A DNA stretch of 64,000 nucleotides, from the NCBI GenBank assembly GCA_963713955.1, contig OY970216.1, positions 209,934 through 273,933 on the forward strand. Direction: 5' to 3'. The number at the start of each line of letters is the position of its first letter. Positions within the stretch are counted from its first letter, which is position 1. The notes beneath the pieces were generated by a model. It was not told the DNA's origin. It did not search any database and saw nothing but the letters and a program-made list of their open reading frames with translations. The DNA comes from an uncultured bacterium. GTDB taxonomy: Bacteria > Patescibacteriota > Minisyncoccia > UBA6257 > GWB1-50-10. Shown here piece by piece: positions 3,667-32,047 of this stretch. Both the position numbers and the translations under genes were made by a program.

Positions 3667-3876
3667 ACAGTGGTTATGATGTTTGGATCCCTAGAAAGAG
3701 TCATATCCATTATCGAAGGTAGGAACGGAGACGTGGATATTCTGACCCAAAGAGAGAAATCCGAGGAGTCCGATTCGGAAATCTTCGATGCCATATTGCG
3801 GGAGGCAGAGAGTTCTTCACAAAAGAACTCTGCGAGCCGCTATGGCGATGGACCTGGCCTGCCATGTTGCGGATAA
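3667..3876 (+). CDS. Small hypothetical ORF (68-70 aa) immediately downstream of the ATP-grasp gene. Speculative precursor peptide.
   Basis: RBS-like aaaggaga lies 9 nt before GTG 3667 (ATG at 3670). Acidic, Ser/Thr-rich middle (TQREKSEESDSEIFDAILREAESSSQKNSAS) and C-terminus GDGPGLPCCG. Followed directly by a strong hairpin terminator. Confidence 0.25.
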   Translation, partial: TVVMMFGSLERVISIIEGRNGDVDILTQREKSEESDSEIFDAILREAESSSQKNSASRYGDGPGLPCCG

Positions 3877-3884: not shown

Positions 3885-3927
3885 GAGTCGACGAGGGGAA
3901 CCCCCACGTCGACTCTTTTATTTTTTC
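3885..3927. terminator. Hairpin gagtcgacg-aggggaaccccc-acgtcgactc plus ttttatttttt. A rho-independent terminator shared by convergent genes.
   Basis: Perfect 9-bp stem plus T-run on the + strand. It abuts the clpP stop (3918) on the other strand. Confidence 0.55.
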
Positions 3928-4502
3928 GTCCGTATGATTTCGTCTATGAGGCCGTATTCCTTGGCTTCTTGGGGCGTAAGATAAAAATCCCGATCGGTGT
4001 CGCGCTCTATCTTGTCTATTCTTTGTCCGGTGTGTTTAGCCAAAACCTGGTTTATTTTCTCCTTTATCTTGATGATGTGCTTGGCCGTTATCTCGATTTC
4101 AATTGCTTGGCCTTCCGCGCCGCCCATAACCTGGTGGAGAAGTATCTCGGAATTGGGGAGTGCGAATCTTTTGCCTTTCTGACCGGCGCTTAGGAGCACT
4201 GCCCCCATCGAGGCAGCCATCCCGATGCAGATTGTGGATACCGGGGCCTTGACATGCTGCATCGTGTCGTAGATTGCGAGTCCCGCCGTGACCGATCCGC
4301 CGGGAGTGTTCAAATAGAGCTTGATGTCTTTTTTGGAATCCTCGTGATCCAGAAAAAGGAGCTGGGCGATTACGCTGTTCGCGACGTCGTCCATGATGGG
4401 GCCGCCGAGGAAGACGATCCGCTCCATGAGGAGGCGGGAGTAGATATCGTAGGCCCGTTCGCCGTACGACGATTTTTCAATGACGGTTGGTATGAGATTC
4501 AT
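3918..4502 (-). CDS. clpP: ATP-dependent Clp protease proteolytic subunit ClpP.
   Basis: 194 aa. [16 protein letters not shown]..., [15 protein letters not shown]..., catalytic Ser context [20 protein letters not shown]. Canonical ClpP. Confidence 0.95.
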
Positions 4503-5090: not shown

Positions 5091-5241
5091 ACCCTCTATT
5101 ATAGCACACGTATACCAAGAAAGTCTTCCAGTTTTCCCCTTAGAGGTGGTCCCGCCTCAAGGCCTTTTGAGCGCGCACGCGCGGGCGTGGTCTCTAACGG
5201 GGTGAATGTGCTATAATCTTTATGAGCTAAGAAAGTTTGCC

Positions 5242-6291
5242 ATGAAGAAACTATTTTCAAACCCGCTTTTCCATCTGGCTATTATCCTCTTTGTGGTTTT
5301 GGGATTGGAGGGGTACTTGATGGTTCATGCGCAATATATGCCGCCGGCAAACCAGCCGCCGTTTGATAGTTCTTATCCGCCACTTGATACGGGTTCTTCT
5401 CTACAGACCAAGTCAGGAAGCTTGGTGGTAGGCAATTCGTCTCAGGCGTTGCGGTTGCAATTGTCGCCAGCGGGCATTCAATGGGTTGACAGTAACGGCA
5501 ATGTAAGTAGTTCTATGACTTATGACATTAATCTGCAGGGCATAAGGGTAACTGCTGGGGGTTACTCTTCGGTCTTGGGGTATAATTGGCAATCATCCAA
5601 CGGCGGAGCTCTCATTTCCAATGGACCTCTTGTCGTTGGTGCGTCTAATCCTAATTCAGTGTCCAGTTTGAGCAGTGGTAATTTGGTAATCCCTGATTTA
5701 TCTGTCGTTGGTCCGGATGGGTCAAGTAGTTTGAATTTTTACGCGAACCCGCTGGGAAATGAAAACAGGCAAGGCTTGGGGCCGGTTATTTTGTCAGGGG
5801 GGTATTTTTCGACAAATTCTATGCTCGCCAAAAACGGCAATACTGCCGTTACGGGTCCAGAGTCGGGCATATTTGTCAACCCGGCCGGTGGTTTTATTGC
5901 CCTGGGAACCAGTATAGGTAGCACAAAGGATAGTTCTTTCAGCAACAGCTCTCTGTATTTTGCTGGACCAGTGTTAAAAATCTATGCGAACGGAGATGTG
6001 GATGCTCTGCAGGGTTCAGTCGAGTATGCAAGACCACCGGACTCAGCCAATGCGAGTGTTTTCTCAAAAATTGTGGCCGGTGGCGTCTCCGCCAACAGCC
6101 AGTTAATGACGCAATTATATAACAATACGTCCACTTATAATAATGACGTCCAGATTGTTGATCAGTCGGGAAGCATGGTCGAAAACTGCCCCGATGGATA
6201 CTTTGTGAGCGGTGTTGCATTTGGTCACGGTAAAAATGATACCAAGGAGGCGATAATGCTAATGTGCGCGCGTATGTTCCCATCGTTTTAA
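5242..6291 (+). CDS. Secreted paralog 1 of a tandem three-gene family (N-motif DTGSSLQTKSGSL, C-terminal CPDGYFVSG...C).
   Basis: Signal-peptide-like MKKLFSNPLFHLAIILFVVLGLEGYLMVHAQ (start 5242 by codon arithmetic; the ORF track starts at 5206). Shares N- and C-terminal motifs with the next two ORFs. Confidence 0.6.
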   Translation: MKKLFSNPLFHLAIILFVVLGLEGYLMVHAQYMPPANQPPFDSSYPPLDTGSSLQTKSGSLVVGNSSQALRLQLSPAGIQWVDSNGNVSSSMTYDINLQGIRVTAGGYSSVLGYNWQSSNGGALISNGPLVVGASNPNSVSSLSSGNLVIPDLSVVGPDGSSSLNFYANPLGNENRQGLGPVILSGGYFSTNSMLAKNGNTAVTGPESGIFVNPAGGFIALGTSIGSTKDSSFSNSSLYFAGPVLKIYANGDVDALQGSVEYARPPDSANASVFSKIVAGGVSANSQLMTQLYNNTSTYNNDVQIVDQSGSMVENCPDGYFVSGVAFGHGKNDTKEAIMLMCARMFPSF

Positions 6292-6294
6292 GTT

Positions 6295-7791
6295 ATGAAA
6301 AATTATCTGCCAATATTTTTGTTCGTCATCCTGATGTCAATCGCGTTCGCCTTTATCGCGCAAGCGATCAATGTTCCGCTTGATACCTCTTCAGCACCGC
6401 AGTCCAAGGCTGGTTCTCTACATTTTACTTCTTCCAGTATGGATTCCTATATCGGTGATCTCACAGGAGGTGATGTGTTGGGATTTGGCAATGGCGGTTC
6501 TTACGCGACTCTGAGACTCTCCAATGGAGTGTTTAGTGTTTTTTCACCTGCCCTGAATCAAAACTCTGAGGTGCCATTGTGGTTTGCCACGACAACCGGA
6601 ATTTATACGCCCCAAAACCTGTTTGTCACCACGAGTTCACTCGTTGGCAGCATCCCGGCGGATGCCAGTTCTTTAGAGATTTTGGGATTCACCCCGCTGC
6701 CTCCCGATAGTGGTAGCTACTGCGGTAACCAGTCGTACGGCGACAGATTGTTCGGCTGTTCTTCCACGACGCCGAACGTAGGTCTTTATGGTAGCTCATC
6801 GTGGGGTGAGGGAGCGATACTCTTTAATTTGTTTGCGAGTTCAACGGACGGATATGCAGCTAATTGGCCGGTGTCACCGGTAAATGGTAATCAGTCTTCG
6901 TTTGGGATCCTATTTGGTAATGCGTTGGGCAACGGTTTGTCGATAAACGCGTCGGCGCCATTAACCCAGGCTCAAAAAGATAATCAGAAAACTATCAGGG
7001 ATGTCTGGCGTGCAGGGCTTATGCTTGGTTTTGACGGAAGTGCTGTTTTAGGTGCACCTCCGTCCAGCGCAGAATATGCTTTTGAGATAATAACGAATAA
7101 AACCTGCGATGTCGGCAGCGGATGTACCGGGTTTGTAAAGATTGCCTCGAGTTCAGAAGACTTCTTCCGGTATGGTACTTCTGTGACTGCTGGCTATCCG
7201 GCGTACTTCGGCGCAAGAGAAAACTATGCCAGCGGAACGATCGGCTATTGTGATGACTGTACGACAAGCAATTTGAAACCGGAATATAGGTACAAGCGAA
7301 TAATGCAGCCAGCTGATACTACCGTTCGCGCACTCGACGTAGATTTGCTGAATCCATCGTGGAGTAACTGGTGGACCAGTTCGGCGGATCAGGATTGGTT
7401 AAATACTTTAAATCAGTTGGGACAAGGTATCACATGTGCGGGTACTAATAGCAAAGCGGTAAGTCAAAACGGGGCAGGCGGCATTATATTCTGGCCGACG
7501 GGGAGCGTCATTTGTAATTATGCGGGCGGTGGAGCATCGGCGCAGAGGATTTTTGAAACAAGTAATACGAGCTCTCATTACCTTGAGCCAGACTGGACTG
7601 ATTATAATCATATGACAACGAATTCAAGTCCAACATTTTTCACGAATACGTGGGCAACATGCCCACCAGGCTATTTTGTAAAAGGTATCAAGTATGGTAA
7701 ACGCACGTTGGCAACAAAGGGAGGAAGTCTCTTGGGAGAGAATTATTACGACGGTATAGTCCCATCAATAATGTGCGACAGATTGTGGTAG
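6295..7791 (+). CDS. Secreted paralog 2 (N-motif DTSSAPQSKAGSL, C-terminal CPPGYFVKG...C).
   Basis: 498 aa. Signal peptide MKNYLPIFLFVILMSIAFAFIAQA. Ser/Gly/Thr-rich, many Cys. Conserved motifs shared with flanking paralogs. Separated by 4 nt from paralog 1. Confidence 0.6.
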   Translation: MKNYLPIFLFVILMSIAFAFIAQAINVPLDTSSAPQSKAGSLHFTSSSMDSYIGDLTGGDVLGFGNGGSYATLRLSNGVFSVFSPALNQNSEVPLWFATTTGIYTPQNLFVTTSSLVGSIPADASSLEILGFTPLPPDSGSYCGNQSYGDRLFGCSSTTPNVGLYGSSSWGEGAILFNLFASSTDGYAANWPVSPVNGNQSSFGILFGNALGNGLSINASAPLTQAQKDNQKTIRDVWRAGLMLGFDGSAVLGAPPSSAEYAFEIITNKTCDVGSGCTGFVKIASSSEDFFRYGTSVTAGYPAYFGARENYASGTIGYCDDCTTSNLKPEYRYKRIMQPADTTVRALDVDLLNPSWSNWWTSSADQDWLNTLNQLGQGITCAGTNSKAVSQNGAGGIIFWPTGSVICNYAGGGASAQRIFETSNTSSHYLEPDWTDYNHMTTNSSPTFFTNTWATCPPGYFVKGIKYGKRTLATKGGSLLGENYYDGIVPSIMCDRLW

Positions 7792-7809
7792 ACAAAAATA
7801 GCAAAAATT

Positions 7810-9138
7810 ATGAATACAAATAAAATCCTAACAATTTTCGCATCAGTTCTGCTAGTTGCCGTGCTTTTTACCTGGAGAGCTATGGCCTACAATGAGCCAA
7901 GCTATCCCGCACCAGGCGGATCGGTAAATTCGGCGATAGACACCGGCCCCTATGCCCAGAGTAAAAGCGGTCGGCTCGACATTAACATAAACGGGGGTGA
8001 TCTTGTTTTGTCTACGTCATCCATGCCCCAGATCCAGTTCAGCGACAGCGGAGGGGAGGGCATTTTAGAAATGGCCCAAATACCCAATGTTGGTTATGTT
8101 CCTTCGCTTCAATGGAGTACCAATCCGCCGGTGGCTTTAGCGGGTGAGTGGTATGTAACGTCGACTCAAGGTGGTACTATCTTCTCCTACTCACCTTATA
8201 ATGTTGGTATATCAATCCCGCCTTTTACTAGTGGTCCTTCTCAAAGCGCTCTCGGTGAGCTGGTGATGGGAGATGGGAGCAATGCTGGGCTGGTTCTCAA
8301 TGCGGGAAACGGTGGAAACTACATAACATACGGCGCTCATTATGATAATTCGTCAGCGAGTTTAGGTTGGATAGCTAACTCTTCTTCGGGAAATTATCAT
8401 CCGATGCAGATTTATTTCTCGGGAGACGGCAATCAGCTGGCCTTGAGAGTCGGAGATTCCCAACCTGATACCAGTGTACTATGGAAGAGTTCGCTGGCTA
8501 TTGATTCTTCGAATTCTACTATAACATTCAGTGATAGGTATGCAGGTACTGTCATGGGCCCTCATTTTGAATATATGCCGCAAAGCATTCCGTCCGGAGC
8601 GACCGCGACAGATTATACCCAGCAGTTCCTGAGTAGTAATCCTAACGTTAAATCTTATACCGATATATCGGGAAATAGATGTATGGCCTATACGGAGAAC
8701 TTTCCCACTATTATCTCTTCGCCTCCGTCTAACTTGTGCAATGCTTCTGACTTTGGGAAGGATATATATGCCTATCTCAACCATGCTCAGTATGATGAGA
8801 ACGATAACCTCACCTGTGGTCTCACGGCTTACTACCGGTGTGTCGCCGATCAACAGGATCCTCGGAATAACACTTCGAAACTTTACGTCGGTGTTTTGGA
8901 GTTGAAAGACCAAAAATGGAGCGGCACAGTGGAAGCGAGTACGACTATAAGTGGCGATGCGCTCGAATTGAAACTCGGCAATTCATATTACGATTCCTGG
9001 GTCATGTGTCCAAACGGCTATTTCTTGAGTGGAATACACACCTCTGTCTTAAGTAAATCAGGACAATCAACGAGTTACAATATAGTCAACGATGGAAAGA
9101 ATGTAAATGATGCTTACATAGAATGCAGCAAATTATAG
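7810..9138 (+). CDS. Secreted paralog 3 (N-motif DTGPYAQSKSGRL, C-terminal CPNGYFLSG...C).
   Basis: 442 aa. N-terminal hydrophobic ILTIFASVLLVAVLF. Same conserved terminal motifs as paralogs 1 and 2. Confidence 0.6.
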   Translation: MNTNKILTIFASVLLVAVLFTWRAMAYNEPSYPAPGGSVNSAIDTGPYAQSKSGRLDININGGDLVLSTSSMPQIQFSDSGGEGILEMAQIPNVGYVPSLQWSTNPPVALAGEWYVTSTQGGTIFSYSPYNVGISIPPFTSGPSQSALGELVMGDGSNAGLVLNAGNGGNYITYGAHYDNSSASLGWIANSSSGNYHPMQIYFSGDGNQLALRVGDSQPDTSVLWKSSLAIDSSNSTITFSDRYAGTVMGPHFEYMPQSIPSGATATDYTQQFLSSNPNVKSYTDISGNRCMAYTENFPTIISSPPSNLCNASDFGKDIYAYLNHAQYDENDNLTCGLTAYYRCVADQQDPRNNTSKLYVGVLELKDQKWSGTVEASTTISGDALELKLGNSYYDSWVMCPNGYFLSGIHTSVLSKSGQSTSYNIVNDGKNVNDAYIECSKL

Positions 9139-9144
9139 ATTTTT

Positions 9145-11295
9145 ATGACTAGATTATCCATCAAAAAACTTTTCGTCTTCTTCGCTGGGGCAATTGTGGT
9201 AGGGGGAGCGTTTGTGATAACTGGCCATTATGTACTTGCCCTGACGACGGTGCCTGGGGGTAACAATGGCGGCGGGACGGCGGGGAATAATATATCAGTT
9301 CAGATACTGGTTAATGGGGCGTCGAACCTATCCGCCGGTTCGGTAATAGGAAGTAGGATAGACTGCGGAGAGGGAAGCAATATTTGCGGTGGCAGCATAC
9401 CGACGGGTGCAACGAGCGTCACCTTCACGGAGACCCCCGCATCAGGTTACATCTTCAATTCGTGGGGGGGCGATTGCAATAACACGACCGGTAACACGTG
9501 TACCGTGAGTTGGGGTCAAGATCCCACGCCGACGAGCATAAATGTTATTGCTAATTTTGTTTCTTCCCCGGTTCCGTCGCCAGTATCCAGTGCTCTATCT
9601 GTGCAAGTAACCGTCGGCGGGAGTGTCAATAACAGTGCTGGTGTAGTTTCAAGTACGGCGGCGAGCGCGGGAGTTCCTCCTATAAAGTGCGGTGGGAATT
9701 CAACAAACTGCAGCACTAGTTTGAAATTCCCCCCGTCGCAGCGGATTACCCTCACGGCTTCTCCAGCGGGAGGGTACACGTTCTCCGGGTGGAGTTTCTC
9801 AGGGGCTGCTGTTGATACCAATTGTCCGGCGACAGATCTTACTTGCATGGTCGCAAATGATGGGTGGACCACAGCAGGCACCGTCTCAGCCAACTTCACT
9901 AAAATAACCCCTGCTTTTGCCGGTAATATTACGGCGAACATCGTTTACGCGTCGACGACCGGCGGGACGGCGACGGTGTATTTGAGCTGGCCGGCGGCCA
10001 AGAACGCACCGGGAGTAACGTATGCCATTTCGAGAGGTAGCACTCCCGTGGGTAGTACAGCGTCAACCTCATACTATGATACGTCAGCGCCGTTAGGAAA
10101 TTCCGCTACGGTATACAGCATCACGGTAAGCGGTATAAGTGGTAGCATGACGTCTAATTCTCTTGACCTGAACTTACAGAAGGTGCTCACCGGTTATGCG
10201 TGGGCGAACGCCAATGCCTCCACGGTGAGTGGCAGCACTGTGACTACAAAATCGACAAAGTCCTATAACTGGAATAGCGCAAGCACTCCTTTCGATGTGA
10301 GCGGGAGCGCAAGTTCCAATTCTATTACTCTGAGTTTTTCCGAGCCGGCGTCAGGATCTTCTAATTGGTCGCAAGATCCTTCCGCTGATGAAGCCGTCTA
10401 TAGATGTCCGGATTCGGGTTATACTCTCAACTGCAAAAATGTAAGTCAATCTTTGAATGTAAACCCGGGTGGTACGTGGTCTTTTACTGATTCCAATTTG
10501 GTTTTTGCATCGACTTACTACTACGAAGTGGCAACTCATGACCAATATGGCAGCATGTACATAGTATATTTGGCTGCCACGACGAACAGCGCGGCCAACT
10601 ATCAAGGCATCGGCTGGATCAAATTCAGTTCGGACACAACCTCATCGCCGTCGGATACCAATCAGTACGGTGTGTATATTGATGACAAAGGGAATCTTTC
10701 CGGGTATGCCTGGAGCGGGATGCAGTGTCCTTCGGGCCAGAGCGGCAACTGCGGCTACGGTTGGCTCTCGTTCAACGAGAGCGATGCGTCCCATCAGCGT
10801 GGATCGTTCACAGGTGCCGGTCTCACGGATTGGGCAAGATTTCTCACGTTTGCAAACGGCGGGAGTTCCTGGGACGGCTGGGTGAATTTAGGCGGCGTTT
10901 CGTACGATCCTTCGACGAAGATGTTCGGCGGCAGAACGCCGACGTTGCCCGTGGATGTTCTGGGCCAGATGTCTTTCTGCGATCCGAATAACGGAGCGAA
11001 CTATTGCGTCAGGGGAACGCCACCACCGCAGCCGCCGATAATCAAGCCGGTCTCCGCCGTAACGTATAACAGCTTCACGGTGAACTGGACCAATCCGCAG
11101 AAGTATACGAAGATTGAAGTTTATGTCAGCAAGCCAAATAATTCCACTGATTTTAGTTCTCCTCCTGCCGACCAACCGGTATTTGCAACCACGAGTCAAA
11201 GCTACGTCAATGCGACGACAAGTATCCTCTCGGTCCCGGTAAATGCCCTCCCCAATATGCAATATGGCATGTTTGTCAGAGGATATCTAAAATAG
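9145..11295 (+). CDS. Large secreted/surface protein with divergent InlB B-repeat-like domains, GYAW...GWI(S/K)F repeats and a C-terminal fibronectin type III-like domain.
   Basis: 716 aa. N-terminal TM/signal FVFFAGAIVVGGAFVITG. InlB-B-like unit (GSVIGSRIDCGEGSNICGGS...GYIFNSWGGDCNNTTGNTCTV...VIANF). Repeats GIGWIKFSS..., GYAWSGMQCPSGQSGNCGYGWLSFNESDA. Fn3-like VTYNSFTVNWTNPQKYTKIEVYVS. Confidence 0.6.
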   Translation: MTRLSIKKLFVFFAGAIVVGGAFVITGHYVLALTTVPGGNNGGGTAGNNISVQILVNGASNLSAGSVIGSRIDCGEGSNICGGSIPTGATSVTFTETPASGYIFNSWGGDCNNTTGNTCTVSWGQDPTPTSINVIANFVSSPVPSPVSSALSVQVTVGGSVNNSAGVVSSTAASAGVPPIKCGGNSTNCSTSLKFPPSQRITLTASPAGGYTFSGWSFSGAAVDTNCPATDLTCMVANDGWTTAGTVSANFTKITPAFAGNITANIVYASTTGGTATVYLSWPAAKNAPGVTYAISRGSTPVGSTASTSYYDTSAPLGNSATVYSITVSGISGSMTSNSLDLNLQKVLTGYAWANANASTVSGSTVTTKSTKSYNWNSASTPFDVSGSASSNSITLSFSEPASGSSNWSQDPSADEAVYRCPDSGYTLNCKNVSQSLNVNPGGTWSFTDSNLVFASTYYYEVATHDQYGSMYIVYLAATTNSAANYQGIGWIKFSSDTTSSPSDTNQYGVYIDDKGNLSGYAWSGMQCPSGQSGNCGYGWLSFNESDASHQRGSFTGAGLTDWARFLTFANGGSSWDGWVNLGGVSYDPSTKMFGGRTPTLPVDVLGQMSFCDPNNGANYCVRGTPPPQPPIIKPVSAVTYNSFTVNWTNPQKYTKIEVYVSKPNNSTDFSSPPADQPVFATTSQSYVNATTSILSVPVNALPNMQYGMFVRGYLK

Positions 11296-11417: not shown

Positions 11418-12716
11418 ATGAAAACGATCATTCTTTCGGCTTTAATGCTCCTCATGAGCATTGCGCCGATAGATGTTTTGGGACAACAAAGTTCTGTGGC
11501 CCAAAAGGTGAACGGCTGTAACATCAGTCTCAAGTATAGTTGGTTCCCAGGCGGAGGCAGCATCAACGTGAGATCCGTGGCAGTTGTCAATGGAACCATC
11601 ATTGCTGGGACTACTGGCTGGAACGGGACAGCGTTCGTTGCGCCGGTGTATGTTTCTCAGGATACCGGCAAAACGTGGATTCCAATTGATTCCGCGAGAG
11701 GTCTCAATATTCCATGGAACCGGGTTTTCTCAGTATCTGCCGTGGATTCTCATCAGGTTATCATCGGAGCTGATTGTGGGATATACAAATCAATGGATTC
11801 CGGACTGCACTGGATTCAAGTTTATAATGATCCCAATGCTGGTTTTGGAGTATCCTACCTTGGCTACGATACTGTCATAGCCTGTGGTGGCCCCGGCGCC
11901 CTGAAGTCGAATGACAACGGTAATACTTGGCACTATGTAAGTAACGAGAACGTTGGCTGGGTAGTGAAAGCGCCAAATGGAAATCTGGTCAGTGGTATAG
12001 GAAGTGCTTTCGAGAGTGATGCTAAAGGTATCGTGATATCGTCTGATGGAGGGAATAATTGGGAGTCCTCCAACACGGGACTTACCAACAAAAACATATT
12101 TTCCCTGTCTGCCGATAGATCTGATGTCTATGCTGTCACTCATATCGGTGGCACATTTGTATCGCACGATGATGGCTCTTCATGGAGTCCGGTAACCAAT
12201 CTTCCTGATCAAGGGGAAGTTGTATCGACGATAAGTGGTTTGGGTGTGTTCGCTGGTTTCAGCCAGTCGGGTCAGCCAACCCTTTACTGGTCTCGTGACG
12301 GATCGAGTTGGTCTGCGGTCACCGTGTTCGACAATTGGCCGTTCTCGTTTGCTGAATTTGACTCAACCACCGTCGTTATCGGAACCGAAAGCGGCGTATG
12401 GATTGCGCACTTTGATAATCTCACTCCAGTTATCGAGCACCCTACAATTGCCACAAACTTCGCGTTATCCCAGAACTACCCGAACCCGTTCAACCCGACC
12501 ACTGCTATCAGATTCACGGTTTCAAAGAGAAGCTTTGTAACGCTCTCGGTCTACAACGTCCTTGGCCAGTTGGTGAAAACCCTGGTCAATGACGAGAAAA
12601 GTCCGGGAACTTACGAAGCAAGCTTTGACGGTACTTCACTCCCGTCGGGCACCTACATCTATCGTTTGCAAACTGATTTATACTCGCAGACGAAGAAAAT
12701 GGTTCTTTTAAAGTGA
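11418..12716 (+). CDS. BNR/Asp-box repeat beta-propeller protein (sialidase-like or Ycf48-like fold) with a type IX secretion system C-terminal sorting domain (Por_Secre_tail type).
   Basis: 432 aa. Signal peptide. Six S-x-D-x-G-x-(T/S)-W repeats (SQDTGKTW, SMDSGLHW, SNDNGNTW, SSDGGNNW, SHDDGSSW, SRDGSSW). C-terminus LSQNYPNPFNPTTAIRF...LSVYNVLGQLVKTLVN...SGTYIYRLQTD...KKMVLLK matches the T9SS CTD consensus. Extended -10 promoter ttgtggtataat and RBS aaaggag upstream. Confidence 0.75.
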   Translation: MKTIILSALMLLMSIAPIDVLGQQSSVAQKVNGCNISLKYSWFPGGGSINVRSVAVVNGTIIAGTTGWNGTAFVAPVYVSQDTGKTWIPIDSARGLNIPWNRVFSVSAVDSHQVIIGADCGIYKSMDSGLHWIQVYNDPNAGFGVSYLGYDTVIACGGPGALKSNDNGNTWHYVSNENVGWVVKAPNGNLVSGIGSAFESDAKGIVISSDGGNNWESSNTGLTNKNIFSLSADRSDVYAVTHIGGTFVSHDDGSSWSPVTNLPDQGEVVSTISGLGVFAGFSQSGQPTLYWSRDGSSWSAVTVFDNWPFSFAEFDSTTVVIGTESGVWIAHFDNLTPVIEHPTIATNFALSQNYPNPFNPTTAIRFTVSKRSFVTLSVYNVLGQLVKTLVNDEKSPGTYEASFDGTSLPSGTYIYRLQTDLYSQTKKMVLLK

Positions 12717-13119: not shown

Positions 13120-13590
13120 CTAAGAAACATTTTCAATCAAATAGCTACGATTGTTACAAGAGACCTCTTCTCCTTTCTTCCTGCCCATGCATGCACGGGC
13201 TAGCGGAGCAGATGGGGTAAGAGTGGTAACTACCGAGTTGTTCACTTGGATATTTTCCCCTCCGGCCCTCAAAACGATGAAGCAAATTCTGATACCGCCC
13301 GACGTTCCCTTATCTTTCAATTCAATCAATGAACCAACGCTTACAGTACCTTTGTTGTAGTGGATCGGCGTGGTAACAACATAGTTCAGGTCCTCCTGCG
13401 CCTTCTGCAATTGTTGTTGCAGTCCGGCAGCCAAGTGGCTGAGCTGGGATTTTGACGTATCAGAATGGCTCTCACTGCTGCTCGGCGCATCAATGGCGCG
13501 CTCTCTGGTGTCTTTTAAAGAGGCCTCCAATTCTTTCACGCGCCCTCTCAGCAGATCGGCCAGCGCTGAAACGATTTCCTCTTTATTCAT
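13120..13590 (-). CDS. GreA/GreB-family-like protein (C-terminal FKBP-like domain of transcript cleavage factors).
   Basis: 156 aa. C-terminal VSVGSLIELKDKGTSGGIRICFIVLRAGGENIQVNNSVVTTLTPSAPLARACMGRKKGEEVS resembles the GreA C-terminal domain pattern (GS.V.L.D..G....Y.IVG..EAD...G.IS..SPLA.AL.GK..GD.V). The N-terminus is not clearly a Gre coiled-coil, so assignment is moderate. A hairpin terminator (gggagttgatttcaactccc) follows at about 13085-13119. Confidence 0.45.
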   Translation of the reverse strand: MNKEEIVSALADLLRGRVKELEASLKDTRERAIDAPSSSESHSDTSKSQLSHLAAGLQQQLQKAQEDLNYVVTTPIHYNKGTVSVGSLIELKDKGTSGGIRICFIVLRAGGENIQVNNSVVTTLTPSAPLARACMGRKKGEEVSCNNRSYLIENVS

Positions 13591-13770
13591 GACAAATAGC
13601 TCCTTTCAAGCTTGAATAGTTACAAAATTATGTATACATTTTCCCGTAAACTCTGAACCCATAATGAGCAGGTAAAAAATATCAAATGATTAGGTTCTAA
13701 TAATTAGTAAATCACAAATATGAAGAAAGGTCAACTGCATTCTTCCTCGGAAGGTAATACAATCAAAACT

Positions 13771-14328
13771 ATGGATATTTATTTGGTGACAAGGAATAAA
13801 GGTAAATTGCTGGCAGCGAACAGCGCCTTCGATAACACGGGTATCTTTCTTAAGCCAGTAGAAAGAGACTATCCGGAAATCCAGGCTGATACCAGTGCAG
13901 AAATAGCAAAGTACACAGCCCTTGAGGCAGCTAAAAATTTGGGGGCTCCAGCCATTAGAGAGGATCACAGTTTGGTACTTAACGCACTAGACATCCCAGG
14001 GCCATACATGAACTATTTTGAAAAACATGTTCCTCCGGAGAAAATACTTAAAATATTAGAGCGTTTCAACGATCGCTCTGGTTATTTCGAAGTCGCAACT
14101 GCTTACGCGGAGCCGGATGGCGAAGTGCAGCAATTTTCATTCAGAGTTCCCTTCAGAATCAGCAAAGAGATGCGCGGGAAATTACAAACCGGCTGGAACA
14201 AAATCTTGGTTCTTGAGGGGGAAACGCGTACACTGGCTGAATATCCAGAAACGGAAAGAACGCATATCTGGAATAAAAACTATTTGGCGATAGTAAAATA
14301 TCTCAAGGAAAACTCTAAAATTTCCTGA
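13771..14328 (+). CDS. Ham1/RdgB-like non-canonical purine NTP pyrophosphatase (ITPase family), tentative. The ORF track begins at 13720; the ATG at 13771 gives MDIYLVTRNKGKL.
   Basis: IYLVTRNKGKLLAANSAF (compare TGNxGKxxE), REDHSLVLNALDIPGPYMNYF (compare DDSGLxVDALxGxPGxYSARY). Family-level similarity only. Confidence 0.4.
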   Translation: MDIYLVTRNKGKLLAANSAFDNTGIFLKPVERDYPEIQADTSAEIAKYTALEAAKNLGAPAIREDHSLVLNALDIPGPYMNYFEKHVPPEKILKILERFNDRSGYFEVATAYAEPDGEVQQFSFRVPFRISKEMRGKLQTGWNKILVLEGETRTLAEYPETERTHIWNKNYLAIVKYLKENSKIS

Positions 14329-15007
14329 ATACGCCACGGAAGACAGAACGCCATCCCGTATTTACCAAGCTCCTATAAGTTGCCACCTTACTCTCTGGTC
14401 TGATTTTTAATTCTCTAAGAAGACCGAGTATCCTCGATTTCGGCAAGAGTACCATATGCAAACCTTCCTTCGTAAGGAAAGTGAATTTGTCCACATTTAG
14501 TTTCTTAAAAGGAACCTTACTATTTTTTGCATAAAACATGTTTATGCAAACGTATCCTCCCCTTTTCAAAACCCTTGCCGTCTCTCCTACAGCCGCTCTC
14601 AACTCTGATAGAGAATCGACATTATGATAAATGCCATTGGCAATAATAACATTGAAGACCGAATCTTTAAAAGGGAGACGTTTCATATCGGCCATAACAA
14701 TTCTTTTATTAGTTTTATTCCTTAAATACTTTTTAGATTTTTCACGTGCACGCCGAACCATGGACTCGTGCAAATCGCAAGCCCACACGTCAAATCCCAT
14801 TTTGAGTAGTAACACGGTATTACGGCCAGCGCCACAACCTACATCTAAAACTTTCACTGACGCTGGATTTTCAAAGTTAGAAAAAAACTTTTCCCAGTAA
14901 GGAGGGGGTGGTAATAAAGAGAATTCCTCTACAATCTTAGGGTCATTCCAAAATAATTCTTCTGGGGATTTATACATTTTTAATGGCTTTGGTAACACGA
15001 TATCCAC
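14315..15007 (-). CDS. Class I SAM-dependent methyltransferase.
   Basis: 230 aa. Motif I VLDVGCGAGRNTVLLLKMGFDVWACDL, then the post-I acidic residue and motif II/III spacing. Confidence 0.7.
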   Translation of the reverse strand: MDIVLPKPLKMYKSPEELFWNDPKIVEEFSLLPPPPYWEKFFSNFENPASVKVLDVGCGAGRNTVLLLKMGFDVWACDLHESMVRRAREKSKKYLRNKTNKRIVMADMKRLPFKDSVFNVIIANGIYHNVDSLSELRAAVGETARVLKRGGYVCINMFYAKNSKVPFKKLNVDKFTFLTKEGLHMVLLPKSRILGLLRELKIRPESKVATYRSLVNTGWRSVFRGVFRKF

Positions 15008-16085
15008 CGTTCCAAATATGCGTGGAAAATGTTTTCATTCCCCTATCCCTAAAGGCCCTAATGCAAGTTCTAGGATTTTTAGTTATAGCGAATATTCCGG
15101 GTCCTACAGAAGATATTGCCAGAACATCGGCTATATTGTCTTTCTTCAAATACCTCAGGTCATCGCATAATTTGGTCAAACCGGGGTAGGTGAAAGAACA
15201 GTTTTCTATACTTCCCATTTCAAAGCGATATTTGTAAATAACATCACCTATTTTCGAGAGATCGTTACTGACCACCGATGGTAAGACCTCATGCAAGACT
15301 AGATATGCAATATCCTTTCCCCATTTTTTACCGGTAGCCACGAAGCGATGAAGATTTCTCTTTTCCATTGCCATAAGTTCCGCCGCATCAAGATCGGGGA
15401 CATCTTTCGGAATACCGATAACGACTTCGTAGCTCGCCGGTATTTTCATCTCAGCGATGGGAACACTTTCTCCGGCAAGCACTATCATTCCCGCTTTTTC
15501 TATACCACCGGCCGCCGAACCGCCGATGCACTGAACCGGAACGAGATACTCTTCATTGCCATCTATTTCCTCTCCGTGGTTTTGAGCAAGATACGTAATA
15601 AGTACCTGCCGAGGTATGGGATTCCCGTAAGCTTCATTGAACGCACAAGCCACAGCCGCGATAAGACTGCTGCTTGAACCGAGGCCGCAGTGTTTTATCT
15701 CGTTTTCGTTATCAACTTTGATATCGAATCCCTCTTTGAAACCTATAGCTCGTTTCATAAGGAAAGCCGAATGCATAATTAGTGATCGTCTCTTGGAAAA
15801 ATTATCGATAGCTATAGCGGAATCTTTACGTAGCGTTAATGTCACCTTTTTGAACAAGGGAACGACAAATAATATCTCTCCGGGGGTATACTTGAAATTC
15901 TTCTTGACGTCTATCTTACTGGGGTCTATAGCCATGGCATCAAGTCTGCTCGGATATAAAAGAACCAGCTTTCTGTACAAGAGACAGCAGCGTTTTACCT
16001 TTACTTTTATTGGATTAAAAAGGCTCCCCACTTTGAACAGTGAAGAGCCTTTAACTCTCGATAGATTTTTTTTAGTTTTGGGCAT
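14970..16085 (-). CDS. GHMP kinase family protein (beta-RFAP synthase / pantoate kinase-like). The ORF track begins with TTG at 16115; the first ATG is at 16085.
   Basis: GHMP signature HCGLGSSSSLIAAVACAF (P-x-G-S-G-L-G-SS-A-A type phosphate loop). N-terminal YPSRLDAMAIDPSKI resembles the TPSRLHFxLID start of the beta-RFAP-synthase subgroup. Overlaps the downstream methyltransferase by 38 nt. Confidence 0.55.
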   Translation of the reverse strand: MPKTKKNLSRVKGSSLFKVGSLFNPIKVKVKRCCLLYRKLVLLYPSRLDAMAIDPSKIDVKKNFKYTPGEILFVVPLFKKVTLTLRKDSAIAIDNFSKRRSLIMHSAFLMKRAIGFKEGFDIKVDNENEIKHCGLGSSSSLIAAVACAFNEAYGNPIPRQVLITYLAQNHGEEIDGNEEYLVPVQCIGGSAAGGIEKAGMIVLAGESVPIAEMKIPASYEVVIGIPKDVPDLDAAELMAMEKRNLHRFVATGKKWGKDIAYLVLHEVLPSVVSNDLSKIGDVIYKYRFEMGSIENCSFTYPGLTKLCDDLRYLKKDNIADVLAISSVGPGIFAITKNPRTCIRAFRDRGMKTFSTHIWNGGYRVTKAIKNV

Positions 16086-16644
16086 AATGCAGCTTTTGAA
16101 AGAGTATCTTGTCAAGGCTCTCCCGCAAACTTTCTAGATCACCGTTGTTCCATATGTTGAACTGGGCTATTTCACGGATAGTATTTAAGCCCATTCTGAC
16201 ATCCAGATCAAGAAGTTCGTTAAACTCGTCGTCAGAAAGATTCTTCTTCTCACGCGAGTTATAGCGTTCATGTAAAATCTTAAATGGAGCATCTAAAAAG
16301 ACAACTTGATTAGAATACCCATTGACCGATTTTATACGTTCGCTTATGAAAACTATACCACCTTTTGATCGATTGCCAACAATGACTATGTCTTTATGCA
16401 GTCTAGTTTCCTCAGCTCGCATTTTTGCCAATTTCAACTCGCAAACCAGAAGATCGTCCGTAAAGCGCTGGCCGTAATGCCTTTCCCCCTCAGTAATCCA
16501 ATCACCGAAAGAAAGATTAGTATCTTGTTTTTGGTGTATCTGTCTGAGGGTTGGCCCCGAGTCCACTGTCAAAAATCCATGTGGGGCAATTAAATTGGCG
16601 GAAAGGGTTTTGCCAGATCCATGAGGTCCTACAAGGAAGATCAT
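16072..16644 (-). CDS. P-loop NTPase, small nucleotide/nucleoside kinase-like. Start placed at MIFLVGPHGSGKT.
   Basis: Walker A IFLVGPHGSGKTLSANL. Size about 190 aa with a hydrophobic Walker B-like IVIVGNRSKGG. Resembles adenylate/dephospho-CoA-kinase-like folds. Specificity unknown. Confidence 0.5.
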   Translation of the reverse strand: MIFLVGPHGSGKTLSANLIAPHGFLTVDSGPTLRQIHQKQDTNLSFGDWITEGERHYGQRFTDDLLVCELKLAKMRAEETRLHKDIVIVGNRSKGGIVFISERIKSVNGYSNQVVFLDAPFKILHERYNSREKKNLSDDEFNELLDLDVRMGLNTIREIAQFNIWNNGDLESLRESLDKILFQKLHYAQN

Positions 16645-16821
16645 TGTCTTATTTCTCCTTTCGATTGACAAGTAAAACTTTTCCAAGAATACCACATAAA
16701 AACAATAATGTCAAAACATTTGGACTGACGATTTCAACATTGACATGCTAACAGAATTATTTAATAATAAAATTAGGCTCTTTTACAACCATCTAATCAG
16801 TCAGAAAGAAGGTGAAATACC

Positions 16822-17967
16822 ATGAGGGATACTAAAAGATCGTATCTCAGCATACCCTGCCACTGGAGCGAATCGATAATCAGTACAGTTATGAACGTCA
16901 AGCCGGTTAGAAACATTGACGTATCAGATGTATACGGAGTTATGGCAGATGGCGGGCCAGTTGGACATGGAAGGTCAAGAAACTCAGTTGTAGCTATAAG
17001 CAAAGAGCGCGCCGTAGAGTTTAGATCTTTCCTGAAACATAATGGCCTCAGATTTATTTACTTACTGAATGCTCCTTTCAGATTTGAAGGCAACGCAGAA
17101 CAGAAACAATCATTGGACAGCTATCTGGGGTGGATCATTGAAGATTTAGATCCCGATGCTGTAATGATCGCATCTCATGAACTAATGCGTTACGTAAGAG
17201 CTATCAACGAGCAAACTCCAATTCACATATCTACGATTGCCGGCGTCAGAAACAAAAAGGACCTCGTGAAATACTTAGATATAGTTCCCAGCCGCGTGGT
17301 TCTACACCATGATACCGGGAAAGAATTGGAAACGTTGCTGGAATTAGTGCAGTTCTGCCTTAGTGAAGGCATTGAAATTGAACTAATGGCAACAGAAAGT
17401 TGTTTGTTTCATTGTCCAGATAGGCAAAATCATTACGAATCGTTGGCGCATGGTCGTGAGGATAAGCCGTTTCATTCCGTATGTAACGCGAAGAAACTCA
17501 GTCATCCTCGCGAATTTCTTATGTCAGGCGGAACAATACGCCCAGAGGACATCGAGATCTACGAGGACATCGGTATCCATCATTTCAAAATCACTGGCCG
17601 TTCTAAACCAGCAGATTGGCTTCCGGATGTTGTACGAGCCTACAAGATAAGAGAATACAGAGGCAATCTAATCCGCCTGCTTGGCATAGATCCGCTCATC
17701 CACGCCGAGGATTGGATTTACATTGAAAATTCAGCCCTTTCTGGTTTTACAAAAGAACTGCTTGGCGCAAAATCACATCGCGAGAAGATAGCCTGTGCCG
17801 AAAGGTGGATTACCAAACTTTATGCATCTGGACAATTCAAGCTATTGGACGGTTCAGAATACGTGAATAAAGGTAACTATCTCGATTTACTCTCTTGCGG
17901 CAGAATGTCTGACTCGATTATTAACTGCTCTCAGCAAGAAAGTGATCAGTCAATACACCCCGGATGA
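16822..17967 (+). CDS. Hypothetical protein, possibly U32-peptidase-like TIM-barrel protein (low confidence). An alternative start is at 16891.
   Basis: 381 aa. Layout (IYLLNAPFRFEGNAEQKQSLDSYLGWIIEDLDPDAVMIASHELMRYV...IHISTIAGVRN...VVLHHDTGKELE...CLFHCPDRQ) is compatible with the U32 family architecture, but no diagnostic motif was confirmed. Confidence 0.3.
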   Translation: MRDTKRSYLSIPCHWSESIISTVMNVKPVRNIDVSDVYGVMADGGPVGHGRSRNSVVAISKERAVEFRSFLKHNGLRFIYLLNAPFRFEGNAEQKQSLDSYLGWIIEDLDPDAVMIASHELMRYVRAINEQTPIHISTIAGVRNKKDLVKYLDIVPSRVVLHHDTGKELETLLELVQFCLSEGIEIELMATESCLFHCPDRQNHYESLAHGREDKPFHSVCNAKKLSHPREFLMSGGTIRPEDIEIYEDIGIHHFKITGRSKPADWLPDVVRAYKIREYRGNLIRLLGIDPLIHAEDWIYIENSALSGFTKELLGAKSHREKIACAERWITKLYASGQFKLLDGSEYVNKGNYLDLLSCGRMSDSIINCSQQESDQSIHPG

Positions 17968-18011
17968 TGGCGATATCATTCGGGGTTGTCTATATAAACA
18001 ATATCCTCGTT

Positions 18012-18704
18012 TTACCGCTTCGCTACCTTTTTCGCAGTAGCGTCTGCAAAGATCTTCATCGTATCGTAAATTTTTAATCTTGGATGACGAGGAATCAATA
18101 ATTGTAAATCTGTGCAAGCCAATATTACATGCTCTATCCCCCTTTGCTCAAAACTGTTAATAATATCTACTAACTTTTTTCTGTCTTGATGGCCATGTTT
18201 ATTTGAGACTAAATGGTAAATTATCTCACCGATTTTAGCCTGTTCGTAATCATGGGGGATAACTTGCTCTATATCGTTCTTGACAAGGAACTTTTCGTAC
18301 AACTTTTTATTCAAGGTTATCCTGGTGGAAATAATTCCAACCCTAGAGATACCTTCTTCTTTCAAGAATTTTACCGTTTCTTCAATTATACTGAGTACGG
18401 GAATTTTGACTGAATTCCTAATGTCTTCAATAAAGGTATGTAAAGTATTGCACGGCATTGCTAAGAAATCAGCACCGGCAATTTCTAATCTTCTTGCGGC
18501 ATCTAGGATAAACGGATGGCACCTTTCTTCGCCAATCCCTTTTACAATTGCATCTTCTTCAACATCGTAGGGCAATGGAACGCTATAAATCAGAATCGGG
18601 GGCCTATTAATCTTGTTTAAATCCTGGCATCGAGAAATCAACTCTAAATAAAACTTGGAAGTTGTTTCAGGACCCAACCCACCTATTATGCCGACCGTTT
18701 TCAT
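18012..18704 (-). CDS. Aspartate/glutamate racemase family protein (Asp racemase-like).
   Basis: 230 aa. MKTVGIIGGLGPETTSKFYLELI (GIIGGMGP motif), two catalytic Cys contexts AMPCNTLHTF and ILACTDLQLL. Confidence 0.8.
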   Translation of the reverse strand: MKTVGIIGGLGPETTSKFYLELISRCQDLNKINRPPILIYSVPLPYDVEEDAIVKGIGEERCHPFILDAARRLEIAGADFLAMPCNTLHTFIEDIRNSVKIPVLSIIEETVKFLKEEGISRVGIISTRITLNKKLYEKFLVKNDIEQVIPHDYEQAKIGEIIYHLVSNKHGHQDRKKLVDIINSFEQRGIEHVILACTDLQLLIPRHPRLKIYDTMKIFADATAKKVAKR

Positions 18705-18726
18705 ATTTTTATTTATTGTCTGTCTA

Positions 18727-18909
18727 TTCTATCACAAAAACCGAAAACATAATTTCCATTGAAGGTGGCGACACTTTTCTCCGGTGTACAACAAACATCC
18801 CGGAAATTACGTTGCTACGTTTAACGGCAGCAAATTCGCAAGCGGTCTATACTTCTACCGCCTGCAAGCTGACGATCTTTCTCTTACCAAGGAAATGATC
18901 TTGATGAAG
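18727..18909 (+). pseudogene. Relic C-terminal fragment of a T9SS C-terminal-sorting-domain protein. Truncated, with an internal deletion.
   Basis: In-frame translation ...FSPVYNKHPGNYVATFNGSKFASGLYFYRLQADDLSLTKEMILMK* aligns to the last ~35 aa of the 11418 and 26777 gene products (SPGTYEASFDGTSLPSGTYIYRLQTD...KKMVLLK). An upstream in-frame TGA and no N-terminal body. About 150 nt downstream lies a copy of the terminator repeat. Confidence 0.6.
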
Positions 18910-19069
18910 TAGTTTCGAAAAGTCCGTGCGCTTCGCACCTCCGGGCTTTTCTGCGTTTACGCGGCTTGTTTCCTCCTTCCCCTAATTTCTCCAAAACTAT
19001 CCTTATACCACGATCGTGGTGTTAGGGGAGATTTTGGAATCATCCGCCTGTGAAGTGACCTTGTTCAAA

Positions 19070-19108
19070 GAGGTTCAGTCCTAAAAAACTGAACCCCTTT
19101 TCCGTTTT
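19070..19108 (+). terminator. Copy 2 of the gaggttcag...ctgaacc hairpin plus ttttccgtttt terminator repeat.
   Basis: ttgttcaaagaggttcag-tcctaaaaaa-ctgaacccc-ttttccgtttt. Compare with 12721-12764. Confidence 0.5.
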
Positions 19109-19319
19109 ATATACTAATATTTGGCCTCCCGCTCTCCATATACTAATACCCCCAGCAAAATTCGCCTTAACTATTGATGTCCGACGTCAATAGATTGTGG
19201 TTGCTTTAGAATTCCGCCTCCGCGCAAAGAGCTATGCGCAAAAGTGAGGCGCTATAACTAATCATAGCGCCCAATATATACTTGTTTTTCAGTAAATTTA
19301 ATGATATTATTGAAACAAT

Positions 19320-19535
19320 ATGAGCCGACAATTTACCGCCATTTATAAAAAGACCGGGAAATGGTATTCTGCTTGGGTAGAAGAAATTCCCGGCGTTAAT
19401 ACTCAAGGCCGCACACTAAAAGAAGCCAAAGAAAATCTCAAGGAAGCTCTGGTGCTTGTTTTAGAAACGAGTAAACTTTTGGTCAAAAGCTCTGATTCTA
19501 AGGTTTTAAGAGAACCGATTTCCGTGTCTTTATGA
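19320..19535 (+). CDS. hicB: HicB-family antitoxin (UPF0150 fold), cassette 1.
   Basis: 71 aa. FTAIYKKTGKWYSAWVEEIPGVNTQGRTLKEAKENLKEALVLVLE matches the HicB N-terminal domain pattern (..Y.A.VPELPGC.TQG.TLEEA..N.KEAI.L.LE). The sigma70-like promoter ttgttt-N17-tattat is directly upstream. Confidence 0.7.
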   Translation: MSRQFTAIYKKTGKWYSAWVEEIPGVNTQGRTLKEAKENLKEALVLVLETSKLLVKSSDSKVLREPISVSL

Positions 19536-19723
19536 AGAGGCGCGAACTTGTGAATCGTATCATGAAGCAAGGTTGCGTTTTTGTACGCGAGGGCGCTAAG
19601 CATAGCGTCTTTTTTAATCCCGAAACAAAAAGAATTTCGACGGTACCGCGTCATCAGGAAATCAATAATTTCTTAGCCGAGAAAATCTGTCAGGACTTGG
19701 GCATACCAAAGTCGAGGAAATAG
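19532..19723 (+). CDS. hicA: HicA-family mRNA interferase toxin, cassette 1.
   Basis: 63 aa. KRRELVNRIMKQGCVFVREGAKHSVFFNPETKRISTVPRHQEI fits HicA (YcfA-like: K..E..K.L...G....R..GSH..F.HP.....TVP.H). Overlaps hicB by 4 nt. Confidence 0.75.
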   Translation: MKRRELVNRIMKQGCVFVREGAKHSVFFNPETKRISTVPRHQEINNFLAEKICQDLGIPKSRK

Positions 19724-19810
19724 CGGCTACGGCTGGTTCTCGTTCAACTCGAGTGATGTCCAGGGATGCTCACGAAGTAATACTCAGTGTCAGCCAATCG
19801 TCAGCTTAAT

Positions 19811-20284
19811 ATGAACACCTATTTGAAGAAGTTCATCGACTCCGAGTTTGACAGACCAGGTAAGGCGTTGGATCTGGGGGCGGGAGATTTTTTTGACGTG
19901 GTTTGCCTAAAGCAGCTGAAATGGCAATGCGAAGGCGTAGATATAAAGACCGGCGTTGACTTAGAGAAGCCCTACCTTTCTCCAAGGAGACCGTTTGATC
20001 TTGTTTATTCCAACTACTTAATCCACAAACTCAAGAACAAAAAGCAACTTATCAAGACAGTATTCAACAATTTAAAAAGCGGGGGTTGGTTTTTCCTCCA
20101 CACTTTTGACAAGTCAGATCCTAACAGCCGGTCAACTATTACTGCTAAGTCTATAGAAAATCTATTGAACAAAGAAAGTTTTAAAAGCATTGGCACGCGG
20201 ATTTTCAGCTATTACGATAATGAAGAGGGCCACAAGCATTGGCATAGGATTCTGGAGGTTACCGCGCAGAAACAAGAAGCATAA
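19811..20284 (+). CDS. Small class I SAM-dependent methyltransferase. Start at MNTYLKKF; the ORF track gives 19787.
   Basis: Motif I ALDLGAGDFFDVVCL. Motif-IV-like SGGWFFLHTF. About 158 aa. Confidence 0.6.
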   Translation: MNTYLKKFIDSEFDRPGKALDLGAGDFFDVVCLKQLKWQCEGVDIKTGVDLEKPYLSPRRPFDLVYSNYLIHKLKNKKQLIKTVFNNLKSGGWFFLHTFDKSDPNSRSTITAKSIENLLNKESFKSIGTRIFSYYDNEEGHKHWHRILEVTAQKQEA

Positions 20285-20422
20285 AATGGGAGAAGGCTGA
20301 TACCTGCATCAGCCTTTTGAACTTCTTATTTGCCCGCGTGGTTTCACCACTGTTCCGGGCTTTTCTGCATTTAATGGAGCCACTATTGACAATTTTATTT
20401 CCACGCTTTAGTATACTAAAGT

Positions 20423-21264: not shown

Positions 21265-21273
21265 GAGCCCTCA

Positions 21274-22047: not shown

Positions 22048-22049
22048 TC

Positions 22050-30856: not shown

Positions 30857-30885
30857 TTTGTGTTAAAATCATTATAACAAGCACC

Positions 30886-31989: not shown

Positions 31990-32047
31990 CGATGCGAATA
32001 ACGAAGAAAATAAATTTGTATAATTAGTATATTAGCATCGATACACC

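Follow-up and report, generated by a model that had tools for sequence, protein, structure and literature searches.

Type IX secretion system sorting domains (type A) on a conserved set of beta-propeller proteins in Patescibacteria

Introduction

Two genes in a 64,000-nucleotide stretch of DNA from an uncultured bacterium of the Patescibacteriota (Minisyncoccia; UBA6257; GWB1-50-10; positions 209,934 to 273,933 of contig OY970216.1, GenBank assembly GCA_963713955.1), hereafter called the window, encode beta-propeller proteins, BNR1 and BNR2, that end in a type IX secretion system (T9SS) C-terminal sorting domain (CTD) of type A. A T9SS CTD is regarded as reliable evidence of T9SS cargo and of the biology of the Fibrobacteres-Chlorobi-Bacteroidetes (FCB) group. 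We find that a clade of Patescibacteria (candidate phyla radiation, CPR) has a conserved set of proteins with an ‘orphan’ T9SS tag, to which BNR1 and BNR2 belong; only automatic NCBI names record this association. The literature searched contained no description of T9SS CTDs in connection with Patescibacteria, CPR or Parcubacteria.

Results

BNR1 (11418-12716, plus strand) encodes a secreted protein of 432 amino acids, described here from Pfam and NCBIfam matches above cut-off, an AlphaFold2 model and Foldseek searches. The hydrophobic, signal-peptide-like N-terminus (residues 1-23, 11418-11486; MKTIILSALMLLMSIAPIDVLG|QQ) is followed by a seven-bladed BNR/Ycf48-like propeller (residues 26-333, 11493-12416), a flexible linker (residues 337-357) and the type A T9SS CTD (residues 354-432, 12477-12713). 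The Por_Secre_tail model PF18962 matches residues 354-429, stopping three residues before the stop codon, with 42.6 bits (gathering cut-off 27), and TIGR04183 scores 43.2 bits (cut-off 23); the middle part of the protein gives weak matches to BNR, Sortilin-Vps10 and BNR_2. The conserved C-terminal lysine of the family corresponds to K427, which is kept in at least 90% of the sequences in two alignments (A1 and A3). An exact look-up of the 432-residue sequence gave no entry: in a near-identical contig in the ENA the BNR1 product is recorded as 431 amino acids, owing to a 3-base indel and one mismatch.

BNR2 (25455-26777, minus strand) is a 440-residue paralogue with the same architecture. Its open reading frame (ORF) extends to 26831, and the likely start is the ATG at 26777 (MKNIGLF...), which gives the signal-peptide-like N-terminus MKNIGLFLAAVLIGISSARS|Q. 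The CTD lies at about 25458-25697 on the minus strand; PF18962 scores 31.2 bits (cut-off 27) and Sortilin-Vps10 35.7 bits. BNR2 is about 30% identical to BNR1 overall, with 63-64% identity in the CTD and 24% in the propeller, and its best relative (P0091) is itself found in a CPR context. Both proteins terminate in ...TKKM.LLK, with no C-terminal membrane anchor and no LPXTG motif. Both proteins genuinely belong to the family of type A T9SS CTDs, the CTD being fused here to a single seven-bladed BNR/Asp-box propeller. The initial annotation had quoted the motifs NYPNPFNP, VYNVLGQ, G.Y.Y.L and K..LLK, all of which we found, and had named failure of the tails against TIGR04183 and PF18962 as an outcome that would count against it; the tails pass.

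A third copy in the window is a relic. An ORF of 49 codons (18763-18909, plus strand) contains nothing of a type A CTD but its final ~40 residues (18793-18909), and no recognisable remnant lies upstream of it in any frame. A tblastn search of the window aligned 39-40 residues of the relic with the end of the BNR1 CTD (54% identity, E 1.6e-10), and the hidden Markov model (HMM) of the CTD built in this analysis matched it over model positions 46-85 only (E 9.6e-12). Together with these scores, the count of two full CTD genes and one relic given in the initial annotation stands. The relic is adjoined by a UPF0150/HicB-like antitoxin-type gene (19320-19535, plus strand), which is 86% identical to its counterpart in the related locus L090 (15708-15920), where it follows the intact gene of a 488-residue CTD protein. 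Because of this shared neighbour, the relic is taken to be a truncated orthologue of the 488-residue protein gene. The UPF0150/HicB-like gene has thus been kept downstream of a CTD gene in two CPR loci that are otherwise arranged differently.

The AlphaFold2 model of BNR1, built from an alignment of 22 sequences, has a mean predicted local distance difference test (pLDDT) score of 81 and comprises a helix (2-15), a seven-bladed propeller (26-333), a disordered linker (337-357) and a beta-sandwich (361-430). A Foldseek search of the PDB with this model returned PorZ of Porphyromonas gingivalis first (5M11, E 2.9e-12), with Ycf48 next (template modelling (TM) score 0.63-0.70). In a profile search of PDB sequences the matches were sortilin, Ycf48 and, in GH74 xyloglucanases, the C-terminal propeller (E 2.6e-32). 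When modelled alone, the CTD forms seven strands (pLDDT 83), and its Foldseek matches include solved T9SS CTDs, namely those of RemZ in the SprA-PorV translocon (8GL8_D), mirolase (8QB1), RemA (8GL6_D) and FspA (8GLJ_D). These matches are modest (TM about 0.5-0.65, E about 3e-3), for a fold of low discriminating power.

Among the closest known systems are the type A T9SS cargo proteins of Bacteroidota and Ignavibacteria, in particular those of ~700 residues that combine two BNR propellers with a CTD. BNR1 shares with them the signal peptide, the BNR/Asp-box propeller and the seven-stranded C-terminal beta-sandwich, with 30-33% identity over propeller and CTD. All type A motifs and the conserved C-terminal lysine are present, as in those proteins, and the scores likewise exceed the curated cut-offs. 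In contrast to the ~700-residue cargo, BNR1 and BNR2 have one propeller instead of two, occur in Patescibacteria and lie in a CPR-specific syntenic block; unlike in the usual setting of T9SS cargo, no T9SS gene is in view and the pilus cluster nearby has no secretin.

PorZ, a surface component of the T9SS attachment complex of P. gingivalis, is likewise a beta-propeller protein with a CTD. However, PorZ has two propellers and BNR1 only one, the two proteins are 14% identical (BNR1 against 5M11), and no PorZ-type model is among the NCBIfam matches of BNR1. We therefore reject orthology; the structural match most likely reflects shared architecture. Ycf48/HCF136, DAIP, the C-terminal propeller of GH74 enzymes and the VPS10 domain of sortilin share the propeller fold with BNR1, but none of them carries a T9SS CTD. 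The catalytic cleft of GH74 enzymes needs two tandem seven-bladed propellers. A xyloglucanase function was rejected for BNR1, which has a single propeller and whose profile match covers only the C-terminal propeller of the GH74 structures. Since one propeller cannot form the two-propeller cleft, binding is a likelier role for the BNR1 propeller than hydrolysis.

The host is a CPR bacterium (Parcubacteria/Paceibacteria, near Jorgensenbacteria) and not a relative of the FCB group, as follows from the placement of LigA and other core genes, from a type IV pilus cluster without secretin and from the lack of T9SS components among the ORFs scanned. The core genes of the window encode LigA, DnaB, CysS, RecR, L21, Pth, signal peptidase I, HisS, YbeY, FtsA and FtsZ. 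LigA (ligA, 43220-45352, plus strand), which was used for placing the host in the Patescibacteria, has its top match in a metagenome-assembled genome (MAG) named ‘Patescibacteria group bacterium’ (84% identity). The best 80 LigA loci from 185,579 species genomes all belong to Patescibacteria, Parcubacteria, Paceibacterota, Jorgensenbacteria or Minisyncoccia, or to unclassified MAGs. Scans for Rfam families and tRNA genes detected none in the window, which offered no rRNA for placement, and no exact 48-mer match to the window was present in the genome contigs searched; it is not part of a GTDB representative genome. This placement does not bear out the suggestion in the initial annotation that the lineage, with its T9SS cargo, could be a candidate phylum related to the FCB group.

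A ComF-like gene on the minus strand and then the type IV pilus cluster occupy 30098-43211 (mixed strands). The order in the cluster is pilM, N, O, x, pilB, pilT, pilC, four GFTLIEM pilins, pilD and further pilin-like genes, which confirms the compact, CPR-like pilMNO-pilBTC-pilin-pilD arrangement described before. The cluster contains no secretin, as would fit a cell that has no outer membrane. Among ~55 ORFs of the window scanned against Pfam or NCBIfam, there is no component of a T9SS (SprA/Sov, PorV, PorU, PorZ, GldK/L/M/N), so the earlier remark that no T9SS machinery is in view holds for these ORFs, and the Pfam matches precomputed for 12 related loci likewise include no T9SS family. The T9SS has been described as an outer-membrane system confined to the FCB superphylum/Bacteroidota (PMC11205867, PMC10994853). 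A diderm host of the FCB superphylum, as expected for functional T9SS cargo, is not what we find here, with all 80 LigA matches assigned to the Patescibacteria and a pilus cluster devoid of secretin.

A BNR-CTD gene is present in the corresponding block of at least seven other assemblies of related CPR genomes. The genomic contexts come from GCA_027423705.1, from GCA_021825465.1, the MAG to which LigA locus L002 also belongs, from two contigs of GCA_009712145.1, from GCA_023380715.1, a 465 kb contig of GCA_027423645.1 and GCA_021814805.1, and from several ENA, JGI and Logan assemblies. On the left, the block runs from IF2-RbfA-...-TyrRS-ClpP through three to four unannotated genes with hydrophobic N-termini to a protein of ~720-755 residues with an fn3-like end. 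On the right, the BNR-CTD gene is followed, in some genomes after a Glyco_hydro_cc gene, by a large Flg_new_2/fn3 protein, ComF and pilMNO-x-pilB-pilT(C), with small variations. The left anchor in the window is ClpP (3918-4502, minus strand; 89-91% identical in relatives). Four fast-evolving genes with hydrophobic N-termini (5206-11295, plus strand; 361, 498, 442 and 716 residues) come next, equivalents of which always precede the BNR-CTD gene in the related genomes; the last of them, the 716-residue protein, has Flg_new_2 repeats and an fn3-like C-terminal region. The conserved right neighbour is a Flg_new_2/fn3 surface protein of 979 residues (26873-29812, plus strand; 49-50% identical in relatives), and farther to the right PilB and PilM are 82% and 73% identical. 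The syntenic relatives have LigA sequences that are between 84% and, at least, 75% identical to that of the window; on the 30.2 kb contig JAKAHT010000006.1, the BNR-CTD gene lies together with a ligA that is 75% identical to that of the window.

One-propeller proteins of 430-460 residues are the nearest homologues of BNR1. Two of these are listed by NCBI as a T9SS type A sorting domain-containing protein, one under ‘Candidatus Jorgensenbacteria’ and the other under ‘Patescibacteria group’. The window sequence itself is reproduced by a 133 kb ENA contig (99.98% identity over 21.3 kb) and, at its left end, by a Logan assembly in which IF2-RbfA-TyrRS lies just upstream. A Glyco_hydro_cc gene, weakly GH10-like, directly follows the BNR-CTD gene in the related loci L082 (11544-12842), L089 (11466-12773) and L174 (11544-12848); it is not present in the window, where a low-GC (guanine-cytosine) island takes that position.

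The CTD is the best conserved part of these proteins. For eight proteins whose CPR context is verified or evident from their names, the mean identity is 61% in the CTD and 32% in the propeller, and the syntenic orthologue from a genome with a LigA 83% identical to that of the window is 37% identical overall and 79% in the CTD. The ratio of nonsynonymous to synonymous substitution rates (dN/dS, Nei-Gojobori) in the CTD is 0.13-0.24 at a dS of about 0.9-1.35; in the propeller, synonymous sites are saturated except in the closest pair. Purifying selection acts on the CTD, copies of which have been gained, kept and sometimes lost. All 16 CTD proteins in a CPR context match TIGR04183 at E <= 0.001. 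Other CPR passengers bear the same type A CTD, such as a 1172-residue protein with about ten fn3-like repeats (L086, 15604-19122), the 488-residue protein of L090 (14134-15600), and a 127-residue ORF that consists of a CTD only (L091, 7169-7552). In one homologue, P0024, the CTD (alignment A1, columns ~560-602) runs out of register after VFNTLGQEVAV, which looks like a frameshift or decay. Application of the CTD HMM to 80 ligA-centred CPR loci revealed no CTD, in loci that end short of the BNR position and hence say little about the clade. When the window (12456-12716) is compared with the protein of L082 (P0005), the proportion of synonymous differences (pS) is lower in the CTD (0.59) than in the propeller (0.77, saturated), which could indicate exchange or gene conversion of the CTD, or constraint at the codon level.

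Beyond the CPR-type proteins, the matches of BNR1 are ~700-residue proteins with two propellers and a CTD, and the named ones belong to Ignavibacteria, Melioribacteraceae and Bacteroidota. One-propeller forms also occur among such Ignavibacteria/Bacteroidota-type donors, for which two propellers plus CTD is the usual form. In a distance-based neighbour-joining tree of 110 propeller sequences, from which the CTD was excluded, 12 CPR-type sequences cluster together, among the ~700-residue forms, some of which are named as Ignavibacteria, Melioribacteraceae or Bacteroidota. A protein search with the CTD alone returned short fragments only, the closest named matches being CTDs of Ignavibacteria. 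A wider scan of metagenome contigs serves as contrast only: among the matches listed, there were only FCB-type loci, with no CPR markers. The locus of one of the ~700-residue forms (L092) has a typical diderm context, with lipopolysaccharide heptosyltransferases and four CTD genes in a row.

Both the CTD subtype and the protein family as such are of a kind found in Ignavibacteria/Bacteroidota, so that lateral acquisition, long ago, from a donor of that type is most likely, the donor being judged from the named matches. The acquisition appears old and independent of the low-GC island, since the gene is syntenic across relatives that span the whole range of LigA identity given above, differs from the island in GC content and is found in relatives that have no island. 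Of the proposal in the initial annotation that the cargo genes were acquired laterally, consistent with the island, the lateral origin is supported by family and CTD subtype; the link to the island is not, given the GC content and the island-free syntenic relatives.

The low-GC insertion (13120-25380) lies between BNR1 and BNR2, the latter at its right edge and on the strand opposite to BNR1. Genes in the island have a GC content of 0.38-0.49, mostly 0.38-0.44, and encode a GreA-like protein, Ham1, three to four S-adenosylmethionine (SAM) methyltransferases, a GHMP kinase, a P-loop kinase-like protein, a U32 peptidase, an Asp/Glu racemase, SLOG/LDcluster4, an AstE/AspA-like protein, PfkB and HAD. 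From its gene content, the island looks like a cluster for small-molecule modification. The GC content of BNR1 and BNR2 is 0.48-0.49, like that of the neighbouring surface-protein genes, and that of the core genes is 0.50-0.56. Relatives L082, L089, L173 and L174 lack the island, yet carry the BNR-CTD gene in place. It follows that the island was inserted later, between BNR1 and the conserved gene with Flg_new_2 repeats, and did not serve as a vehicle for the CTD genes.

Some further features of the window and the related loci stand apart from the CTD genes. Between TyrRS and ClpP, the window has three inserted genes when compared with the related CPR genomes. These are an ATP-grasp maturase of ribosomally synthesized and post-translationally modified peptides (2601-3593, plus strand; MvdD/MvdC-like, TIGR04187 222 bits, below the cut-off of 350), a 66-codon ORF after it that ends in ...GDGPGLPCCG (3676-3876, plus strand), and an adjoining gene of the serine beta-lactamase family (1067-2443, plus strand). 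Together they could form a graspetide cluster in a CPR genome. In L174 (99-809) and L175 (180-809), a LAGLIDADG-like ORF with a faint Pfam match is located upstream of the cupredoxin-TyrRS-ClpP block. A second PilM-like protein of 504 residues (53956-55470, plus strand; weak TIGR01175 match) is encoded far from the main pilus cluster, beside small unannotated ORFs. The ORF of ribosomal protein L21 (46936-47436, plus strand) comprises 166 residues with the L21 domain at residues 65-165 only, which points to either an N-terminal extension or an internal true start.

Discussion

We propose that BNR1 and BNR2 are probably Sec-exported, T9SS-independent binding proteins, at the surface or secreted, with a CTD that has been kept for some function. 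That the CTD itself has a structural, retention or partner-binding role independent of a T9SS we likewise hold to be rather likely. An ancestral gene would have been taken long ago from an Ignavibacteria/Bacteroidota-type donor, and would then have been inherited vertically and stably, with occasional duplication or erosion, in a block of surface-protein genes beside the type IV pilus cluster. The proteins would cross the single cytoplasmic membrane via Sec, using a cleavable signal peptide, and, because they have neither a C-terminal anchor nor an LPXTG motif, would be released or held non-covalently at the cell surface. By its resemblance to the binding propellers of Ycf48 and DAIP, the single propeller would most likely bind a glycan or protein ligand outside the cell. 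The CTD may be kept by purifying selection as a folded Ig-like module with a role of its own, for instance in surface retention or partner binding. The location of the genes among those of secreted proteins by the pilus cluster, and near a glycoside hydrolase in relatives, suggests a role at the cell surface or at the host interface.

Several points weigh against this proposal. The signal peptides of BNR1 and BNR2 were called by eye from the sequence, and the negative result for the T9SS extends to the window plus some 150 kb from related loci, which is short of a whole genome. Erosion of the CTD is seen in the window relic and, as it appears, in P0024. Bootstrap support in the neighbour-joining tree is modest for the exact clade of 12 CPR sequences (41/100; 72/100 for a clade of <=14 taxa), and the positions of BNR2 and P0093 are unstable, so that more than one transfer is possible. 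We know of no function for a T9SS CTD outside a T9SS. The conserved type A motifs mainly specify the fold, with one near-invariant C-terminal lysine that contacts PorV (PMC10994853), and conservation of the CTD therefore cannot show that parts of a T9SS are the selective agent.

A different possibility, which we consider unlikely, is that the CPR clade, ultra-small and presumably monoderm, captured the type A CTD from Ignavibacteria/Bacteroidota and keeps it on several surface proteins because it still engages T9SS parts, either by mimicry directed at PorV or the attachment complex of a host, or in a CTD-dependent sorting process that has gone unrecognised, in cells that have no outer membrane. 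Mimicry would have the CPR bacterium live as an episymbiont of T9SS-bearing Ignavibacteria or Bacteroidota, with the CTD docking on PorV loops or the attachment complex of the host; we regard it as improbable. Substrate CTDs do bind extracellular loops of PorV, mainly via their fold and one conserved lysine (PMC10994853), and the CPR proteins have retained this lysine. In its subtype the CTD comes nearest to Ignavibacteria, the genes always neighbour those of other surface proteins and of the type IV pilus, the tag is borne by several different passengers, and purifying selection acts on the CTD whereas the passenger evolves fast. However, the idea is wholly inferential, and no link between these lineages (Jorgensenbacteria and Ignavibacteria) was found in the literature searched. 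Moreover, the inside of the SprA pore provides more than half of the buried CTD surface, so that a lower affinity is expected for free PorV (PMC10994853). If true, the use of a mimicked tag for episymbiotic attachment would also point to the host.

It is very unlikely that the lineage has CTD-recognising export or sorting machinery of its own, whether a reduced or divergent T9SS or an unrelated system, for which BNR1 and BNR2 would be true cargo. Several types of cargo with one highly conserved tag are indeed the pattern of organisms that possess such machinery. Nevertheless, no T9SS family was detected in the scanned ORFs of the window or in the Pfam listings of the 12 related loci. The core parts of the T9SS are outer-membrane barrels and periplasmic rings. 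In contrast, CPR cells are monoderm in the few cases that have been described (PMC8871954), with which the secretin-less pilus cluster is in agreement.

There is also little to be said for a recent lateral transfer together with the low-GC island, in which case the CTD would be a functionless passenger awaiting decay. BNR2 borders the island, the relic lies inside it, and decay of copies is possible, as seen from the relic and from P0024 with its disrupted CTD. Co-transfer of the CTD genes with the island is, however, largely refuted by the GC content of BNR1 and BNR2, which is not the 0.38-0.44 of the island, by relatives that hold the gene at the same place without the island, by the nearest relatives of both genes, which are CPR proteins and not FCB proteins, and by the low dN/dS of the CTD.

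The binning or assembly chimera considered in the initial annotation, an FCB fragment joined to a CPR fragment, can be dismissed despite a step in GC content from ~0.45 to ~0.52 near 27 kb, because the same junctions, with ClpP to the left of the BNR-CTD gene and the pilus genes to its right, recur, each time within one contig, in several assemblies that were made independently, from different samples and with different assemblers, among them contigs that reproduce the window or join the BNR-CTD gene to ligA.

CPR bacteria are mostly episymbionts. The proteins described here form a conserved set, under selection in the CTD, in a lineage that is not expected to use the tag in the known way. They call for caution, in that ‘T9SS cargo’ should not be counted from the CTD alone, and they provide a natural test case for what a CTD does without a T9SS. 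A tag borrowed from Ignavibacteria or Bacteroidota could, in addition, point to the donor or the host of these bacteria and to a mechanism of attachment.

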